From Shigella phage JK36: DNA of 64,000 nt. The notes under the pieces are model-generated. The model saw nothing but the letters and a program-made list of their open reading frames with translations. It ran no database searches and was not told the origin of the DNA. Of this stretch, positions 3,295 to 64,000 are shown in pieces. The stretch is from the sequence record MK962754.1; one strand, 5' to 3'. Numbering within the stretch: position 1 is the first letter of the stretch; the number at the start of each line of letters is the position of its first letter. The translations under genes were made by a program, and so were the position numbers.

Positions 3295-4665
3295 ATGACT
3301 ACTATCAAAACTAAAGCTCAGCTCGTAGACAAATGGAAAGAACTGCTGGAAGGTGAAGGCCTGCCGGAAATCGCTAATAGCAAGCAGGCTATTATCGCTA
3401 AAATCTTCGAAAACCAGGAAAAAGATTTCGAAGTATCCCCTGAATATAAAGACGAGAAAATCGCTCAGGCATTTGGTTCTTTCTTGACCGAAGCTGAAAT
3501 TGGTGGTGACCATGGTTATAATGCTCAGAACATCGCAGCGGGTCAAACCTCTGGTGCAGTAACCCAAATTGGGCCGGCAGTTATGGGTATGGTTCGTCGT
3601 GCTATTCCTAATCTGATCGCTTTTGATATTTGTGGTGTTCAGCCTATGAACAGCCCGACCGGTCAGGTATTTGCTCTCCGTGCAGTATATGGTAAAGACC
3701 CTATCGCTGCTGGCGCTAAAGAAGCTTTCCATCCGATGTATGCTCCAGATGCGATGTTCTCTGGTCAGGGTGCTGCTAAGAAATTCCCAGCTCTGGCTGC
3801 TGACACTACTACTGTTGTAGGTGATATCTATACTCACTTCTTCCAAGAAACTGGTACTGTATATCTGCAAGCTTCTGCTGTCGTAACACTTGATTCTGGT
3901 GCAACTGATGCAGCTAAATTAGATGCAGAAGTTAAGAAACAAATGGAAGCTGGTGCACTGGTAGAAATCGCTGAAGGTATGGCTACTTCTATCGCTGAAC
4001 TCCAGGAAGGTTTCAACGGTTCTACCGATAACCCATGGAATGAAATGGGCTTCCGTATCGATAAACAAGTTATCGAAGCTAAATCTCGCCAGCTGAAAGC
4101 TGCTTACTCTATCGAATTAGCACAAGACCTCCGTGCAGTACACGGTATGGATGCTGATGCTGAATTGAGCGGTATTCTGGCTACAGAAATTATGCTAGAA
4201 ATCAACCGTGAAGTTGTTGATTGGATTAACTACTCTGCACAGGTTGGTAAATCTGGTATGACCCTGACTCCGGGTTCTAAAGCTGGTGTATTTGACTTCC
4301 AGGACCCGATTGATATCCGTGGTGCTCGTTGGGCCGGTGAAAGCTTTAAATCTCTGTTGTTCCAGATTCATAAAGAAGCAGTTGAAATTGCTCGTCAAAC
4401 CGGTCGCGGTGAAGGTAACTTCATTATCGCTTCCCGTAACGTAGTTAACGTACTGGCTTCAGTTGATACTGGTATTTCTTACGCTGCACAGGGTCTGGCT
4501 TCTGGTTTTAATACCGACACTACTAAGTCGTATATGGTAAAGACCCTATCGCTGCTGGCGCTAAAGAAGCTTTCCATCCGATGTATGCTCCAGATGCGAT
4601 GTTCTCTGGTCAGGGTGCTGCTAAGAAATTCCCAGCTCTGGCTGCTGACACTACTACTGTTGTAG
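3295..4665 (+). CDS. 23: gp23 N-terminal fragment (about 411 native codons then 44 out-of-frame codons)
   Basis: ORF track; C-terminal tail YMVKTLSLLALKK... is the duplicated segment read in a shifted frame. Confidence 0.8.
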   Translation: MTTIKTKAQLVDKWKELLEGEGLPEIANSKQAIIAKIFENQEKDFEVSPEYKDEKIAQAFGSFLTEAEIGGDHGYNAQNIAAGQTSGAVTQIGPAVMGMVRRAIPNLIAFDICGVQPMNSPTGQVFALRAVYGKDPIAAGAKEAFHPMYAPDAMFSGQGAAKKFPALAADTTTVVGDIYTHFFQETGTVYLQASAVVTLDSGATDAAKLDAEVKKQMEAGALVEIAEGMATSIAELQEGFNGSTDNPWNEMGFRIDKQVIEAKSRQLKAAYSIELAQDLRAVHGMDADAELSGILATEIMLEINREVVDWINYSAQVGKSGMTLTPGSKAGVFDFQDPIDIRGARWAGESFKSLLFQIHKEAVEIARQTGRGEGNFIIASRNVVNVLASVDTGISYAAQGLASGFNTDTTKSYMVKTLSLLALKKLSIRCMLQMRCSLVRVLLRNSQLWLLTLLLL

Positions 4666-5374
4666 GTGATATCTATACTCACTTCTTCCAAGAAACTGGT
4701 ACTGTATATCTGCAAGCTTCTGCTGTCGTAACACTTGATTCTGGTGCAACTGATGCAGCTAAATTAGATGCAGAAGTTAAGAAACAAATGGAAGCTGGTG
4801 CACTGGTAGAAATCGCTGAAGGTATGGCTACTTCTATCGCTGAACTCCAGGAAGGTTTCAACGGTTCTACCGATAACCCATGGAATGAAATGGGCTTCCG
4901 TATCGATAAACAAGTTATCGAAGCTAAATCTCGCCAGCTGAAAGCTGCTTACTCTATCGAATTAGCACAAGACCTCCGTGCAGTACACGGTATGGATGCT
5001 GATGCTGAATTGAGCGGTATTCTGGCTACAGAAATTATGCTAGAAATCAACCGTGAAGTTGTTGATTGGATTAACTACTCTGCACAGGTTGGTAAATCTG
5101 GTATGACCCTGACTCCGGGTTCTAAAGCTGGTGTATTTGACTTCCAGGACCCGATTGATATCCGTGGTGCTCGTTGGGCCGGTGAAAGCTTTAAATCTCT
5201 GTTGTTCCAGATTGATAAAGAAGCAGTTGAAATTGCTCGTCAAACCGGTCGCGGTGAAGGTAACTTCATTATCGCTTCCCGTAACGTAGTTAACGTACTG
5301 GCTTCAGTTGATACTGGTATTTCTTACGCTGCACAGGGTCTGGCTTCTGGTTTTAATACCGACACTACTAAGTC
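3685..5374. repeat. direct tandem duplication, 2 x 845 bp (3685-4529 and 4530-5374), 844/845 identical
   Basis: hand alignment at offset 845; single mismatch C4369 vs G5214; duplicated antisense ORFs also appear in the ORF track. Confidence 0.9.
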
Positions 5375-5708
5375 TGTATTTGCCGGTGTACTTGGTGGTA
5401 AATACCGCGTATACATCGACCAGTATGCTAAACAGGATTACTTCACCGTTGGTTACAAAGGCGCTAACGAAATGGATGCAGGTATTTACTATGCTCCTTA
5501 CGTTGCACTTACCCCGCTGCGTGGTTCCGATCCTAAGAACTTCCAGCCGGTAATGGGCTTTAAAACTCGTTACGGTATCGGTGTTAACCCGTTTGCTGAA
5601 AGTTCCCTGCAGGCTCCAGGTGCTCGCATCCAGTCCGGTATGCCATCTATCCTGAACAGCCTTGGTAAGAACGCTTACTTCCGCCGTGTATATGTAAAAG
5701 GCATCTAA
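4581..5708 (+). CDS. 23: gp23 C-terminal fragment starting at an internal Met (native frame of second copy plus true 3' end)
   Basis: 375 aa identical to the corresponding part of the upstream ORF except one residue (D vs H), then the native C-terminus ...RRVYVKGI. Confidence 0.8.
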   Translation: MYAPDAMFSGQGAAKKFPALAADTTTVVGDIYTHFFQETGTVYLQASAVVTLDSGATDAAKLDAEVKKQMEAGALVEIAEGMATSIAELQEGFNGSTDNPWNEMGFRIDKQVIEAKSRQLKAAYSIELAQDLRAVHGMDADAELSGILATEIMLEINREVVDWINYSAQVGKSGMTLTPGSKAGVFDFQDPIDIRGARWAGESFKSLLFQIDKEAVEIARQTGRGEGNFIIASRNVVNVLASVDTGISYAAQGLASGFNTDTTKSVFAGVLGGKYRVYIDQYAKQDYFTVGYKGANEMDAGIYYAPYVALTPLRGSDPKNFQPVMGFKTRYGIGVNPFAESSLQAPGARIQSGMPSILNSLGKNAYFRRVYVKGI

Positions 5709-6131: not shown

Positions 6132-7415
6132 ATGAGTAAAATCCAAAAATTATTGCGTGAATCTACAACGTCTACTAGCAACTCAATTGGTCGCCCAAAT
6201 CTCGTTGCTTTGACTCGCGCTACGACTAAATTAATATATTCTGACATTGTAGCAACACAAAGAACTAATCAACCTGTTGCTGCTTTTTATGGTATCAAAT
6301 ATCTTAACCCAGATAACGAATTCACATTTAAAACCGGTGCTACTTATGCTGGCGAAGTTGGATATGTAGACCGAGAAAAAATTACTGAGCTCACAGAAGA
6401 ATCAAAAGTCACACTAAATAAAGGTGATTTTTTCAAATATAATAATATCGTCTATAAAGTGTTAGAAGATACACCATTTGCAGATATTCAAGAAAGTGAT
6501 CTAGAATTAGCTCTTCAGATTGCAGTCGTTCATTTAAAGGTACGGTTATTTTCAGATGCAGCGGTAACAAGCAAATTTGAAAGCTCTGGTAGCGAAATTT
6601 CTGATGCAAGATTCCAGATTAATAAATGGCAAACTTCAGTCAAATCTCGTAAACTTAAAACTGGCCTCACGGTTGAATTAGCGCAAGATTTGGAAGCGAA
6701 TGGATTTGATGCCCCTAACTTCTTAGAAGATTTGCTTGCTACTGAAATGGCTGATGAAATTAATAAAGATATTCTTCAGTCTTTAATTACTGTATCGAAA
6801 CGTTATAAAGTTACTGGAATTACTGACACCGGATTTATTGACTTGAGCTATGCATCCGCTCCAGAAGCAGGTCGTTCATTATATCGAATGGTGTGTGAAA
6901 TGGTATCACACATTCAAAAAGAGACAACTTATACTGCAACGTTTTGTGTAGCCTCAGCTCGTGCAGCTGCTATTCTTGCTGCTTCTGGTTGGTTAAAACA
7001 TAAGCCAGAAGATGACAAGTATCTTTCACAAAATGCTTATGGATTCTTGGCAAATGGATTACCTCTTTACTGCGATACCAACAGTCCGTTAGATTATGTT
7101 ATTGTGGGTGTTGTAGAAAATATCGGCGAAAAAGAAATTGTAGGGTCCATCTTTTATGCTCCATACACTGAAGGAGTAGATTTAGATGACCCGGAACATG
7201 TCGGTGCATTTAAAGTTGTAGTTGATCCGGAAAGTTTGCAACCGTCTATCGGATTATTGGTTAGATATGCTTTATCAGCAAATCCTTACACAGTAGCAAA
7301 AGACGAAAAAGAAGCGAGAATAATTGATGGCGGGGACATGGATAAAATGGCAGGACGTTCAGACTTGTCTGTTTTATTAGGTGTTAAGCTACCAAAAATT
7401 ATCATTGATGAATAA
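6132..7415 (+). CDS. 24: capsid vertex protein gp24
   Basis: 427 aa (same as T4 gp24); shares the gp23-like ELAQDL motif. Confidence 0.92.
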   Translation: MSKIQKLLRESTTSTSNSIGRPNLVALTRATTKLIYSDIVATQRTNQPVAAFYGIKYLNPDNEFTFKTGATYAGEVGYVDREKITELTEESKVTLNKGDFFKYNNIVYKVLEDTPFADIQESDLELALQIAVVHLKVRLFSDAAVTSKFESSGSEISDARFQINKWQTSVKSRKLKTGLTVELAQDLEANGFDAPNFLEDLLATEMADEINKDILQSLITVSKRYKVTGITDTGFIDLSYASAPEAGRSLYRMVCEMVSHIQKETTYTATFCVASARAAAILAASGWLKHKPEDDKYLSQNAYGFLANGLPLYCDTNSPLDYVIVGVVENIGEKEIVGSIFYAPYTEGVDLDDPEHVGAFKVVVDPESLQPSIGLLVRYALSANPYTVAKDEKEARIIDGGDMDKMAGRSDLSVLLGVKLPKIIIDE

Positions 7416-30390: not shown

Positions 30391-30961
30391 AAAAGTTTCG
30401 GATTTGTTCCCAATTCAGAGAACGAAGATTATTACGAGAGTACTGAATTACTTCAATACCGGCTTGTTTTAGAATGTCTGCCCAATTTTCAGGAGATCTG
30501 TCATATAATTCTGCGTATACAACCTTTTTAATACCTGACTGTGTAATAGCTTTAGTGCAATCAGGACACGGAGAAAGCGTCGTATATAACGTAGCACCTT
30601 CAATAGAATTACCTTTGCGAGCAGCAAACAAAATGGCATTTAATTCAGCATGGATTTCGTTATTAGCAGACCATGCACTATGAGCGGCCCGATGTTCTTT
30701 AGCCAAAACAAAATTATCCACCCGTCCAAATGCTGTAGTGCCTTCTTTATGCCCAGCAACGATGACCGGGCTTGGTTTATTCTTCAACCAACCGTTTTCG
30801 GATGCATGTTCGCAACAGTTTGTACCACCTGAAGGAGAGCCATTATAACCTGTAGAAATAATGCGTCCATCTTTTTCAATGACGGCGCCAACTTTCCATG
30901 AACAACATTTTGATTCTTGAGAAATCAGATAAGCAATCTGAAGATATGTGCTAGCTTTCAT
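30380..30961 (-). CDS. cd: dCMP deaminase
   Basis: 193 aa; zinc-binding HAELNAI and PCPDC motifs. Confidence 0.92.
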   Translation of the reverse strand: MKASTYLQIAYLISQESKCCSWKVGAVIEKDGRIISTGYNGSPSGGTNCCEHASENGWLKNKPSPVIVAGHKEGTTAFGRVDNFVLAKEHRAAHSAWSANNEIHAELNAILFAARKGNSIEGATLYTTLSPCPDCTKAITQSGIKKVVYAELYDRSPENWADILKQAGIEVIQYSRNNLRSLNWEQIRNFCGE

Positions 30962-31197
30962 TATAGTGTTCCGTATACACGAGTTGCTTCAACTAAACCG
31001 TCACTGCCTAATTTAAGGCTAGTAATCTGGTCACCATCTTTAGGATTAACAATTATGAGAAAAGAACGTGGAGATTCTTGAATAACACGTAATGTTGCAT
31101 CTTGGAAACGTTCAGACACTTTATTGATAAGTGCTTGAGCAAATTCTTTTACTTTAATCTGAAATTCGTGCACTGTAATTGGGTTTTCACTTAGCAT
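30961..31197 (-). CDS. hypothetical protein (78 aa)
   Basis: ORF, cd.x cluster. Confidence 0.5.
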   Translation of the reverse strand: MLSENPITVHEFQIKVKEFAQALINKVSERFQDATLRVIQESPRSFLIIVNPKDGDQITSLKLGSDGLVEATRVYGTL

Positions 31198-51774: not shown

Positions 51775-54700
51775 ATGGCTACTTTAAAACAAATACAATT
51801 TAAAAGAAGCAAAACCGCAGGTGCACGTCCTGCTGCTTCAGTATTAGCCGAAGGTGAATTGGCTATAAACTTAAAAGATAGAACTCTTTTTACTAAAGAT
51901 GATTCAGGAAATATCATCGATTTAAGCATTTCCGCTGGCGGTAATATCAGTGGAAATATCACTCAAACTGGTGATTATACACAGACTGGAAAATTTAATT
52001 TAATTGGCCCACAGATTATAGCAAGTGGTGGATATATTGAGTTTAATTATCGTACTACTGGAAGTGGGGCTTGGTCCGGTCAACACACTGCAAAAGCTCC
52101 AATTTTTGTAGATTTAAGCTCAGCTACTTCCACATCTGAATATAATCCTATAATTAAACAGCGCTTTAAAGATGGAACTTTTTCATTAGGTACTTTAGTT
52201 TCTGAAGGTTCGTTAAAGATTCATTATATTGATGAAACTGGTCAATCTAAATATTGGACATTTGCGCGCTCAGGTAATTTTCAAGTTGATTCTGGTAATT
52301 TATTAGTATCTGGTGGGTATTTAGTCGCTCAGAGTAATATTGAAACAAGAACAGGTTCTTTGATTGGTCCATCTGTTGTAACTAAAAATATTTCATTTGA
52401 TACGAAAGCGTTTGGACAATACGATTCGCAGTCATTAGTTCAATATGTTTATCCTGGAACTGGTGAAACAAACGGAATTAATTACCTTCGTAAATTCCGT
52501 GCAAAATCTGGTGGTACGATTTATCATGAATTAGCTTCTGCACAAACCGGAAAAAGCGATGAACTGTCTTGGTGGACCGGTAATACAGCCGTTAATAAAC
52601 AAATGGGCCTTCGCAATGATGGGTCTTTAGTGTTGCGACGCTCACTCGCAATTGGTACAATTACAACAGATGAAAACATTAATAATTACGGCTCCACTGG
52701 AGCAATGGGTGAATGCTATATAGTCATTGGAGATGCCGCAACTGGTGTATCATATAAAAGATCTGGTGTATATGATTTAGTTGCTAATGGTCTTTCTATC
52801 GCGTCTATTACTCCTGACAGTTTCCGTAGTACTCGTAAAGCATTATTTGGACGTTCAGAAGACCAAGGCGGAACATGGAATATGCCTGGAACGAACGCTG
52901 CGCTTTTATCAGTTCAAACACAAGCTGATGGAAACTCTGCCGGTGATGGTCAAACCCACATTGGATATAATTCTGGCGGTAAAATGAATCATTATTTTCG
53001 TGGTACTGGTCAGATGAATATCAATACCCAACAAGGTATGGAAATTAATCCAGGACTGTTGAAACTAACAACCGGTACAAACAATGTAATGTTTTATGCT
53101 GATGGCGGTATTACATCCACTAAGCAGCTTTCAATATATAATGGTGTATATTTAGCAGCTAATAATTCTACTGCTGGGCTAACATTCGCTCCAACTACTA
53201 CAGTTGATGGCACTAAGCAAATTTTGTGGGAAGGCGGTACTCGTCCTGGTCAGAATAAAAGCTATGTAACTGTTAAAGCGTGGGGTAATTCATTTAACGC
53301 ATCTGGCGATCGTAATCGTGAAACAGTTTTTGAAGTAGCTGACGGACAAGGTTATTATTTTTATTCCCAACGCGTAGCCCCAAGCGGCTCAGAAACTACT
53401 GGTCCTGTTGTAACCCAGTTCAATGGACAAGTTAATGCTAGAGGAAGTATTATTACTGACGGAAGTTTTAAAGTTAATGGATTAAGCACTTTAGTCGGTA
53501 ATGTTACCATGTCTAACGGTTTGTTTGTCCAAGGTGGTTCTTCTATTACTGGACAAGTAAAAATTGGTGGAACAGCTGATGCATTAAGAATTTGGAATGC
53601 CGAATATGGTGCCATTTTCCGCCGTTCAGAAGCATCATTACATATTATCCCGACTCCTAAAGATGCCGGTGAAAGTGGTGGAATAAGTAATCTCCGCCCG
53701 TTAAGTATTAGTCTTAATAATGGTATGGTACAAATGCGCCATTCCGTTACATTAGGTGATGATGGTGCAGGCGGTAATATGGTGACGGTTGATAATGATT
53801 CTAAAGTTATGGTAATGACGACTAATAGCCGTATTAGTCCTAACTTCCGTATGCAAATTGGACAGTCGTCTTATATTGATGTGGAATGTACTGATGCTGT
53901 GAGACCTGCTGGAGCCGGTTCTTTTGCTTCACAGAATAACGAAAACGTTCGCGCTCCGTTCTATATGAATATTGATAGAACAGATACAAGCACTTATGTT
54001 CCTATTGTGAAACAAAGATACGTTCAAAATAATAGTTGCTATTCTATTGGTACTTTAATTAATGGTGGTAACTTTAGAGTTCATTATCATGAAGGCGGTG
54101 ACGGCGTTTCTACTGGTGCTATTATAAAGGATCTTGGATGGGAATTTAATAAAAACGGTGATTTTTATTCTCCTGGTAAATTAGGCGCTGGAAATATTAG
54201 AATAGGTACTGATGGTAATATTACTGGCGGAACTGGTAACTTTGCTAACTTGAACACAACTATCGAATCATTAAAAACCGATATTGTTTCAAGTTATCCT
54301 ATTGGAGCTCCTATTCCATGGCCTACAGATACTCCTCCTAATGGTTACGCTATTATGGAAGGACAGACTTTTGATAAGTCTGCATACCCAAAATTGGCTA
54401 TAGCTTACCCATCTGGAGTAATTCCTGATATGCGCGGGCAAACTATCAAAGGTAAACCAAGCGGTCGTGCTGTATTAAGCGCAGAAGCCGATGGTGTTAA
54501 GGCTCATAGCCATAGTGCATCGGCTTCAAGTACTGACTTGGGTACTAAAACTACGTCGAGTTTTGATTATGGTACTAAGACGACAAGTAGCTTTGACTAT
54601 GGCACTAAGACTAGCAATACCACAGGTAACCACTCTCATACTGTAAGCGGTACTACGAGTTCTGCTGGTGCACACCAACATGCGCGCTCAGGTCCTCAGA

Positions 54701-55050
54701 TACAAGCCGGCATACCCAATAACATATTCTATGACGGATATAATAGTGTAGGTGCAAACGCCAACGCTAAATTCACTGGAACCGTGAACGGTGCTACTGC
54801 AGGGTCGAATATAGCCAAAACTTCTTCAGACGGTGCTCATACCCATACTTGGTCTGGTACTACAAGCACTACAGGTAACCATGCTCACACAGTAGGTATT
54901 GGTGCTCATACCCATACTGTAGGTATCGGTGCCCACTCTCATTCGGTAGCGATTGGTTCCCATGGACATACAATAACTGTAAATGCCACAGGAAATACAG
55001 AAAACACAGTTAAAAACGTTGCTTTTAACTATATCGTTCGTTTAGCATAA
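51775..55050 (+). CDS. 37: long tail fibre distal subunit gp37 (receptor-binding tip with His-x-His boxes)
   Basis: 1091 aa; C-terminal GHSHTV / AHTHTW / [16 protein letters not shown] motifs as in T4-type gp37. Confidence 0.9.
54541..54615 (+). repeat. 30-bp tandem repeat (2.5 copies) encoding [10 protein letters not shown], with synonymous divergence between copies
   Basis: ggtactaaaactacgtcgagttttgattat / ggtactaagacgacaagtagctttgactat / ggcactaagact... Confidence 0.8.
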
Positions 55051-55077: not shown

Positions 55078-55629
55078 ATGAAAATATATCATTATTATTT
55101 TGACACTAAAGAATTTTACAAAGAAGAAAATTACAAACCGATTAAAGGTATGGGTCTTCCAGCTCACTCGACATCTAAAAAACCTTTAGACCCTAAAGAA
55201 GGCTATGCTGTTTTATTTGATGAACGCGAACAAGAATGGGTGTATGTTGAAGACCATCGTGGAAAAACAGTATGGACTTATGATAAGCAAAAAATTGTTA
55301 TTGACACTCCAGGTGCTCTTCAAAATGTTACTACAGAAGAACCTGGTGAATTTGACATTTGGACCGGTGACGGGTGGAAGGAAGATGAAGCATATAAACG
55401 CGTAGTTCAACGTGATAAGAAAATTCATGAACTCTATAAATTATTCAGTGTTTTAAGTTCTCTTATTGACGCAGAGGTTGCTAATAGAGAAGAAAAACGA
55501 AAATTTAAAGAGCTCAAAAAATTCTTTGCCCTTTTAGAAAAACATGAACATCTTGGCGGTGAATTCCCTAAATTCCCTGACCTTGAAAACAAATCTATTA
55601 TCAAAGCGATTATAAATATCTTTAAGTAA
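55078..55629 (+). CDS. 38: gp38, T4-type tail fibre assembly chaperone
   Basis: 183 aa (same as T4 gp38); N-terminus MKIYHYYFDTKEFYKEENYKP matches remembered T4 gp38. Confidence 0.9.
   Translation: MKIYHYYFDTKEFYKEENYKPIKGMGLPAHSTSKKPLDPKEGYAVLFDEREQEWVYVEDHRGKTVWTYDKQKIVIDTPGALQNVTTEEPGEFDIWTGDGWKEDEAYKRVVQRDKKIHELYKLFSVLSSLIDAEVANREEKRKFKELKKFFALLEKHEHLGGEFPKFPDLENKSIIKAIINIFK
55611..55618 (+). promoter_or_regulatory. late promoter TATAAATA upstream of t (inside 3' end of gene 38)
   Basis: exact TATAAATA about 20 nt upstream of the t ATG. Confidence 0.55.
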
Positions 55630-62222: not shown

Positions 62223-62843
62223 TTAAAGATGAAGATACCACCCGTTGTAGTTGCTCTTGCGGACGATTTTCTTTAGGTCTTCATGGTCTCCCACGAACTT
62301 TATAGAATAAGAGAAGACGTCAGGTGAGGTTTCTTTGACATCTAATATAATAATGCAATCTGCGACTCGATGGTTCAAGAAGGGCCCTATATTGATTCCA
62401 TTACCACCCGGATAATCACCACTGTATCCTGTGGTAACCGAAATCCATTTCGAATCCATCTGATGGGTCTTTACTTCTACGCGTAGACCACAGTACTTAG
62501 GATGAGCTAAAACGTCCCATGCATACGTGTACGGGTCTTCTACGTCTTCATTACCTTTATTAACATATCCGTCTAGCCAATTTGCTACTACATACTCTGC
62601 AAAGACTGCAACCTTACAACGTCGAACAACGTCTTCTTTTATTTGACCTGGATCTTGTTTCAACGAGTACCGAGCAGTATCAGCGATCTTAACCTTCATT
62701 TCGCTAGTCAAAAACTCATTCGACAGGACAAATGTCGGAAGACTCTTCAGCCTCAACAGCCCCAAGTTCGTCTTTACCATAGATACCTCTGATGTGTAGT
62801 TCGCCAAAATAAATGCGGTCACCTTCTTCAAGATATTCTGCAT
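62223..62843 (-). CDS. hypothetical protein (206-aa ORF; real start may be internal, about 185 aa)
   Basis: ORF; overlaps the next ORF by 128 nt if the first Met is used. Confidence 0.5.
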   Translation of the reverse strand: MQNILKKVTAFILANYTSEVSMVKTNLGLLRLKSLPTFVLSNEFLTSEMKVKIADTARYSLKQDPGQIKEDVVRRCKVAVFAEYVVANWLDGYVNKGNEDVEDPYTYAWDVLAHPKYCGLRVEVKTHQMDSKWISVTTGYSGDYPGGNGINIGPFLNHRVADCIIILDVKETSPDVFSYSIKFVGDHEDLKKIVRKSNYNGWYLHL

Positions 62844-63054
62844 CTACCGGCGGAATTTCATTAACAACTTCGTCGCATTCTAACCAGCCGTAGTGTGCAT
62901 CGCCAGGATGTTTTACCAATTTAGCACAATAAACTGATTTACACTTATGATGACCACGAAGATTAGCAATTTTGGATTCTGATACGTCAAATGGATGAAT
63001 CATAATTACCCCTAAAGAAAAAGGGGACCGAAGTCCCCAATTATTATTCTGCAA
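62716..63054 (-). CDS. hypothetical protein (probable start near 63003 after the rIIB terminator, about 95 aa)
   Basis: ORF; AGGGG RBS before the internal Met. Confidence 0.5.
   Translation of the reverse strand: MQNNNWGLRSPFSLGVIMIHPFDVSESKIANLRGHHKCKSVYCAKLVKHPGDAHYGWLECDEVVNEIPPVDAEYLEEGDRIYFGELHIRGIYGKDELGAVEAEESSDICPVE
63014..63038 (-). terminator. terminator hairpin GGGGACUUCGGUCCCC + U-tract after rIIB
   Basis: minus-strand stem followed by TTTTTCTTT. Confidence 0.7.
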
Positions 63055-63991
63055 ATAATTCAGTAACGTCTGAAATTACTTCATAACGACAAGTACGCAT
63101 CTTAGCATCACCATAGTCGACTGGGATGGATACAACATCACGTGGATGAACTTTAACTTTCACAACTTTATCTGAGCTTGAACCAAAGTGGCGAATATAA
63201 GATTTAGCACAAACGTGGAGACCGCGAGAACAGGTTTGAGTATCATCGTCGTTAACTCGAGTACGAGGCATTGAAACAACTTTACCTGGGGAGTTATCAA
63301 ATGTACCACTATAGCAGTCTAAATAGTCCTTACGAACTACTTTCCACGCATAGAAATGACCATCTTCAGTGATTTCAATATCGTTTGCAACCAAGAAGTC
63401 GAATAAACGTTGTACAGCTTTTTCACTTGGGTTTTCTAACAGGTTTTCAAGGAATGGCAGATAGAATTTAAAGTCTTCACCTTTTTCCATGGAATCAATA
63501 ATACGGTTAACCAACCCTGAACGAATCTCTATACCTTGATAAAATAAACTACCACCTTCAATAGTAACATTACCATCAACAAACTTAGTAATAGCTTTCT
63601 TGATGTTAATAAGTTCGACAGCTTTACTAAGGTTTCCTGCGACCAGATTAGCTTTAATTTCTTCAAAATTTGCATGACTTGATGGAGTCGCATTGTATGC
63701 TACGCGTCCTTCAATAATTGAAATAAATTTAGATGACGCGTTCCATACGATTTCAGGACGATGTCCGCCGATAATAGGTTCATCATTTTCTGGAACTTCT
63801 TCGATTACATAAGAGGCATCGTTTGCTTCAGGGACAACGCCTTCTGCTTTAAAATTCTTAACAATCTTACGAAGAGTATCTGTTGAAATGTCGAAGTAAT
63901 CGGCAATTTCTTTACGAGTCCATTTGCCTGATTCAACCAGGCCGTAAGCTTCTAACTGTTCTTCTTGGGACAAGCATTTGATATTGTACAT
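63044..63991 (-). CDS. rIIB: RIIB protein
   Basis: 315 aa; MYNIKCL... N-terminus and conserved C-terminal half match remembered T4 rIIB. Confidence 0.92.
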   Translation of the reverse strand: MYNIKCLSQEEQLEAYGLVESGKWTRKEIADYFDISTDTLRKIVKNFKAEGVVPEANDASYVIEEVPENDEPIIGGHRPEIVWNASSKFISIIEGRVAYNATPSSHANFEEIKANLVAGNLSKAVELINIKKAITKFVDGNVTIEGGSLFYQGIEIRSGLVNRIIDSMEKGEDFKFYLPFLENLLENPSEKAVQRLFDFLVANDIEITEDGHFYAWKVVRKDYLDCYSGTFDNSPGKVVSMPRTRVNDDDTQTCSRGLHVCAKSYIRHFGSSSDKVVKVKVHPRDVVSIPVDYGDAKMRTCRYEVISDVTELFAE

Positions 63992-64000
63992 AATGTTTCC

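Follow-up and report, generated by a model that had tools for sequence, protein, structure and literature searches.

An out-of-frame 845-nt tandem repeat in the major capsid gene of a Mosigvirus-type phage sequence is probably an untrimmed assembly overlap

The question raised by this locus is whether a long direct repeat inside gene 23, which encodes the major capsid protein, was made by the phage or by the handling of its sequence. The window (the whole stretch of DNA that was analysed, 64,000 nt) is collinear with the genome of Escherichia phage APCEc01 (Mosigvirus) at approximately 99.5% identity. Identity is 99.4-99.9% over most of the length, drops to 96-98% near the window end and is lower still across the tail-fibre region. 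The gene order in the window runs from the portal, prohead core, protease and scaffold genes through gp23 to gp24 and onwards. The initial annotation offered two readings of the repeat: two alleles of a mixed population that an assembler had placed in tandem, or a genuine duplication with a later substitution. An assembly origin is favoured in our analysis and a genuine duplication is disfavoured, because the repeat is unique, lies out of frame in an essential gene, has no in-register homology at its junction, sits in an otherwise clean sequence and is accompanied by signs of rotation.

A base-by-base comparison at an offset of 845 nt identified one 845-nt unit present twice, head to tail (Table 1). 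Identity at this offset covers positions 3685-4368 and 4370-4529, the spacer between the copies is 0 nt, and the copies match at 844 of 845 nt (99.9%). The sole mismatch is C at 4369 versus G at 5214, which is base 1 of gp23 codon 359 and gives His in copy 1 and Asp in copy 2. This comparison bears out the C/G, His/Asp difference described in the initial annotation, and both of the peptides quoted there were found again in the ORF translations, LLFQIHKEAV in ORF 3295-4665 and LLFQIDKEAV in ORF 4581-5708. The other differences from APCEc01 that fall inside the repeat are common to both copies (3803 corresponds to 4648). The repeat is the only one of at least 60 nt within the window, and an 845-nt repeat with 844 identities cannot be of chance origin.

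Table 1. Coordinates of the gene 23 repeat, its junction and the window end.
Feature	Position	Strand	Remark
Gene 23 (major capsid protein) as written	3295..5708	+	2414 nt versus 1569 nt in relatives; PF07068 on both pieces
Frameshifted ORF	3295..4665	+	456 aa: gp23 residues 1-412, then 44 out-of-frame residues, stop
Residual C-terminal ORF	4581..5708	+	375 aa; internal Met start; original gp23 frame
Copy 1 of the 845-nt unit	3685..4529	+	codon 131 base 1 to codon 412 base 2; private C at 4369; copy to delete
Copy 2 of the 845-nt unit	4530..5374	+	ancestral G at 5214
CAT, His359 in copy 1 (T4 numbering 358)	4369..4371	+	seen nowhere else; 160 nt upstream of junction
GAT, Asp359 in copy 2	5214..5216	+	ancestral residue; Asp358 of T4 gp23
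Junction ...CTACTAAGTC / GTATATGGTA...	4529..4530	+	without in-register microhomology
Window last base	64000	.	equals last base of T4-convention Mosigvirus records (zero point next to rIIB)
Record ends matching 64000	MK373778 (170429); PP434429 (169367); MK373782 (170187)
Record ends matching 64000, others	MK327943 (167834); OL960576/OL960577 (169615)

The unit runs from the first base of one gp23 codon to the second base of another, and its length is 845 = 3 x 281 + 2, a departure from a multiple of three that the initial annotation left unmentioned. Thus, the frame of gene 23 shifts at 4529/4530 and the gene is split into two fragments, both of which match the Pfam family PF07068 (Gp23), with E = 9e-81 and 5e-99. 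As written, the gene has no single intact frame collinear with full T4 gp23, and no second intact gp23 copy was found within the 64-kb window. T4 gp23 is the essential shell protein and the single major capsid protein. From this known essential role, a phage with only the genome as written would be unable to build heads. In addition, neither the exact 456-aa product nor the exact 375-aa product of the two ORFs has a record in public assemblies. Programmed frameshifting or bypassing across the junction was also considered as a way to express the gene as written. It was rejected, since even an in-frame read-through would be expected to add a second 282-residue copy to a capsid protein of the HK97 fold.

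Removal of one copy restores a normal gene. Deletion of copy 1 gives a 1569-nt ORF, and its 522-aa product has the same sequence as P0121, a capsid protein of Mosigvirus that occurs on 75 public contigs. Against the T4 gp23 of solved capsid structures (for example, PDB 6uzc), the collapsed protein aligns from one end to the other, residues 3-522 matching T4 residues 2-521. Each of the best 40 phage records matches the 2414-nt query over exactly 1569 nt of its own sequence, annotated as major capsid protein, which indicates that gene 23 is single-copy in these records. The repeat is therefore absent from the close relatives, and both this absence and the recovery of a normal gene on collapse are expected of an artefact. 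Beyond these relatives, an 80-nt junction probe was covered to at least 80% in 0 of 50,697 phage records, and the exact junction patterns were found in none of the IMG/VR sequences, JGI metagenome contigs and GTDB genome contigs. The true gene 23 is most likely single-copy, 1569 nt in length, with a 522-aa product that carries Asp at residue 359.

The junction itself was examined for homology that could have guided a join. Copy 1 ends in CTACTAAGTC and copy 2 begins with GTATATGGTA. Copy 1 is preceded by A and copy 2 is followed by T, which leaves no in-register microhomology. The true downstream flank is TGTATTTGCC, and the GTAT match there is offset by one base. A duplication mediated by the GTAT microhomology was rejected for this reason: its register is one base off, and it would give an in-frame unit of 846 nt, not 845. 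The GTAT near-miss at the junction is probably coincidental. Gene 23 also contains an internal, imperfect 34-nt repeat (3676-3709 and 4129-4162, duplicated at 4521-4554 and 4974-5007) with a 12-nt exact core, CTCCGTGCAGTA (at 3676 and 4129), that encodes LRAV(Y/H)G. The left boundary of the unit, 3685, falls within the first of these cores, which is probably a coincidence as well. The junction is arbitrary with respect to both frame and homology (the unit is 3n+2 in length and the joined bases are unlike the parental flanks), as would be expected of an artefact, and the in-register short-homology join expected of a genuine T4-type duplication was not found.

The initial annotation held that the ancestral copy could not be told from the sequence alone, and proposed a comparison with gp23 of close relatives. 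That comparison does settle the matter: judged from the related sequences, Asp/G, as in copy 2, is the ancestral state, and C/His is private to copy 1. A 61-mer around the copy 2 G has 100% identical matches in 133 phage records; of the 189 phage records that match the corresponding 61-mer with the copy 1 C, 0 are identical to it. T4 gp23 in PDB 6uzc has Asp358 at the position that matches residue 359. Among 121 gp23 homologues (down to approximately 70% identity), the residue-359 column contains Asp in 120, Asn in one and His in none, and a full-length His gp23 was not found among about 15 billion proteins. Thus, neither the 189 records nor the 121 homologues provide the independent isolate with a His359 allele that a natural Asp/His polymorphism would be expected to show. 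Gene conversion from the paralogue gp24 was rejected as the source of His, since gp24 (25% identity) carries Val at the matching position. A literature search on gp23 D358 variants and on T4 gene 23 tandem duplications found nothing relevant in the collection searched.

The remainder of the window was compared with APCEc01 gene by gene. Among the 75 APCEc01 ORFs of at least 100 aa, gp23 alone is broken by frameshift or truncation in the window. The remaining ORF differences are a portal gene that runs off the edge of the window, a single gene that is absent, changes of start codon or length, and a divergent gp37. The few other indels of 1-2 nt relative to APCEc01 are located in intergenic homopolymer runs or at gene ends. 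Poor overall quality, such as long-read indel errors, was therefore rejected as the cause of the frameshift, as the comparison with APCEc01 shows neither frameshift nor truncation in any other gene of the window, and general indel noise would not explain a frameshift located exactly at the junction.

Approximately 1.1 kb of APCEc01 (L004:37750-38742) is missing from the window at about 30946-30964. The missing gene, APCEc01_082 (330 aa, annotated as hypothetical), belongs to the DAHP synthase family (PF00793, E = 5e-75); it is an auxiliary metabolic gene whose presence varies between close relatives in Mosigvirus. The protein of the distal long tail fibre, gp37 (51775-55050), has approximately 60% protein identity to its APCEc01 counterpart (1091 versus 1016 aa), and the exact gp37 product of the window has no public record. 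Tandem Repeats Finder identified short imperfect repeats within gp37 at 54534-54613 and 54892-54949 (periods 30 and 27). The neighbouring gp38 (55078-55629, 183 aa) is identical to gp38 of phage moha (MN850590), whose gp37 differs (1163 aa). The gp37/gp38 pair is a mosaic host-range module within a genome that is otherwise 99.5% identical.

The end of the window bears on how the sequence was handled. For at least six independent Mosigvirus records in the T4 convention, the match to 62801-64000 runs up to the final base of the record, a short way beyond the start of rIIB (Table 1). T4-type genomes are circularly permuted, and an assembler opens the contig at an arbitrary position. Because the window nevertheless ends on the T4-convention base, the source sequence was probably rotated or scaffolded to a reference layout after assembly, and the window probably represents the final 64 kb of a record whose start was set to the T4 zero point. 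Rotation or ordering of this kind brings the original contig ends together at a point within the record. Reference-guided assembly could also give the reference layout, and it would not by itself create the duplication.

We consider it likely that the tandem repeat is an artefact of sequence construction in which overlapping assembly ends were joined untrimmed. An assembler would open the contig of a permuted genome at some arbitrary site, leaving an overlap between the two contig ends or between the ends of neighbouring contigs. The original contig may have run from 4530 round the circle to 4529, or two adjacent contigs may have ended there, in either case with an end overlap of 845 nt. The sequence would then have been rotated or ordered to the T4 reference layout, and the old ends, which by chance lay inside gene 23, would have been abutted at 4529/4530 with the 845-nt overlap left in. 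The C at 4369 would lie 160 nt from the putative old 3' contig end, where the consensus may have been drawn from a subset of the reads. It could be an error of base calling or of the consensus where few reads support the contig end; alternatively, a variant present in a minority may have become the consensus locally. The mismatch between 4369 and 5214 may have hidden the overlap from an end-trimming step that required an exact match. We infer this order of events (assembly, rotation, failure to trim) and this origin of the C. Two properties expected of such an artefact, a near-identical tandem direct repeat without spacer and signs of a re-layout after assembly, are both present. The initial annotation had argued that an artefact would normally give identical copies. 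This argument is weak, since overlapping contig ends that are built from subsets of the reads can differ, and a mismatch is one reason that automatic end-trimming fails. Besides the possibility of a reference-guided assembly, two observations count against an untrimmed overlap. The length of 845 nt does not fit the k-mer size (for example, 127 nt) that SPAdes overlaps typically have, which calls for an overlap-type assembler or for contigs that were abutted. Also, the GTAT match offset by one base and the boundary in the CTCCGTGCAGTA repeat are not predicted by an arbitrary contig end.

Several other explanations were weighed against the untrimmed overlap. The Asp and His alleles of gp23 might both be real in a mixed population, kept as overlapping contig ends and then concatenated, so that only the duplication is an artefact. 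As a sub-case of the untrimmed overlap, this explanation has all of its support in common, and a true minority allele would account for the lack of automatic merging. However, Asp is nearly invariant at this site, which makes a viable His allele at high frequency unlikely; His is absent from the close records, the homologues and the protein collection described above, and one erroneous base fits the data equally well. A real polymorphism is thus unlikely, though it deserves some weight. A manual editing or copy-paste slip, or a deliberate in-silico change during gap closing, polishing or record preparation, would be unrelated to contig ends. It is consistent with the blunt, homology-free junction, the one changed base, the otherwise flawless sequence and the layout that was handled after assembly. 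Nothing points to it specifically, and an untrimmed end overlap is the commoner cause of such a pattern in permuted phage genomes, so we give it very little credence.

The repeat could also be a real intragenic tandem duplication of gene 23, made by illegitimate recombination or template switching in T4-type replication, with the G-to-C change in copy 1 arising later or concurrently. T-even phages do form tandem duplications and amplifications, the join is clean and novel and could not be invented by a k-mer assembler from the four shared nucleotides of GTAT, and there is imperfect homology close by (C-GTAT-TG). On the other hand, the out-of-frame duplication leaves the genome without an intact major capsid gene, and such a genome would be unable to form heads on its own. 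Inactivation of the sole major capsid gene speaks against a fixed duplication, and the viability or selectability expected of a genuine T4-type duplication was not found, as the sole gp23 gene is frameshifted, which would presumably be lethal. In addition, recombination between the 845-nt repeats would, by our own estimate from T4 map lengths, remove the duplication in a few growth cycles, and a repeat lost so rapidly by homologous recombination would not be expected to make up the consensus of a lysate. At the junction, the homology is one base off the register of an 846-nt event, and the duplication was seen in none of more than 1000 related records. For these reasons a real duplication is improbable. 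Still less probable, in our judgement, is the particular case of a defective Mosigvirus genome in which a real out-of-frame capsid-gene duplication, together with D359H in copy 1, reached high frequency in a lysate and was propagated by co-infection or by recombinational repair to wild type inside the cell; this would capture a capsid-gene duplication in progress.

The feature is most probably not biological and represents an error to correct. The correction is to remove the copy 1 sequence, 3685-4529, and keep Asp359. If left uncorrected, the sequence would yield a broken or split major capsid gene, a genome length inflated by 845 nt and a false Asp-to-His change where the capsid residue is nearly invariant. 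The main value of the finding is in quality control. A real repeat would offer a rare direct view of an intragenic capsid-gene duplication in a T-even-type phage, a possibility that the evidence does not favour.

The repeat can be compared with several known systems. Artificial terminal overlaps are described in assembled circular or circularly permuted phage contigs, for example a 127-bp SPAdes overlap, followed by resetting of the start site (PMC5923482). Like these overlaps, the repeat described here is a near-identical direct repeat, absent from relatives and at an arbitrary position relative to genes. An assembler terminal overlap turns into an internal tandem duplication if the contig is rotated untrimmed, and the reference-style layout of the window implies such handling. 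Unlike SPAdes-type overlaps, the repeat is 845 nt in length and not k-mer sized, contains one mismatch and is internal rather than at the record ends.

Genuine tandem duplications of phage T4 include the duplications of the rII region and the Hp17 amplifications, which form at short homologies. The repeat resembles these in being head to tail in a T-even-type genome, in which headful packaging can take extra DNA. The genuine T4 duplications keep functional gene copies, are selected and have short in-register joins, whereas the window has a frameshift in its sole major capsid gene and out-of-register homology at the junction. The gp23/gp24 paralogues represent an ancient capsid-gene duplication that gave the vertex protein. 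As with that pair, a major capsid protein sequence is duplicated in the same neighbourhood, with gp24 at 6132-7415. However, gp23 and gp24 are whole genes, of ancient origin and 25% identical, and the repeat is partial, 99.9% identical and disruptive. Lastly, putative variants of the Mosigvirus-type capsid protein with an internal repeat or deletion were found in databases. The gp23 of Escherichia phage AV112 (P0001, 540 aa) has an in-frame 18-aa tandem repeat, GATDAAKLDAEVKKQMEA twice, in a variable middle part of the protein, and the ENA metagenomic gp23 proteins P0005 and P0006 have in-frame deletions of 16 and 32 aa near the AV112 repeat region. The repeat in the window is likewise an internal variant of such a protein, but these three variants are short and in frame and would be compatible with function, whereas the unit described here is a unique, out-of-frame repeat of 282 codons.
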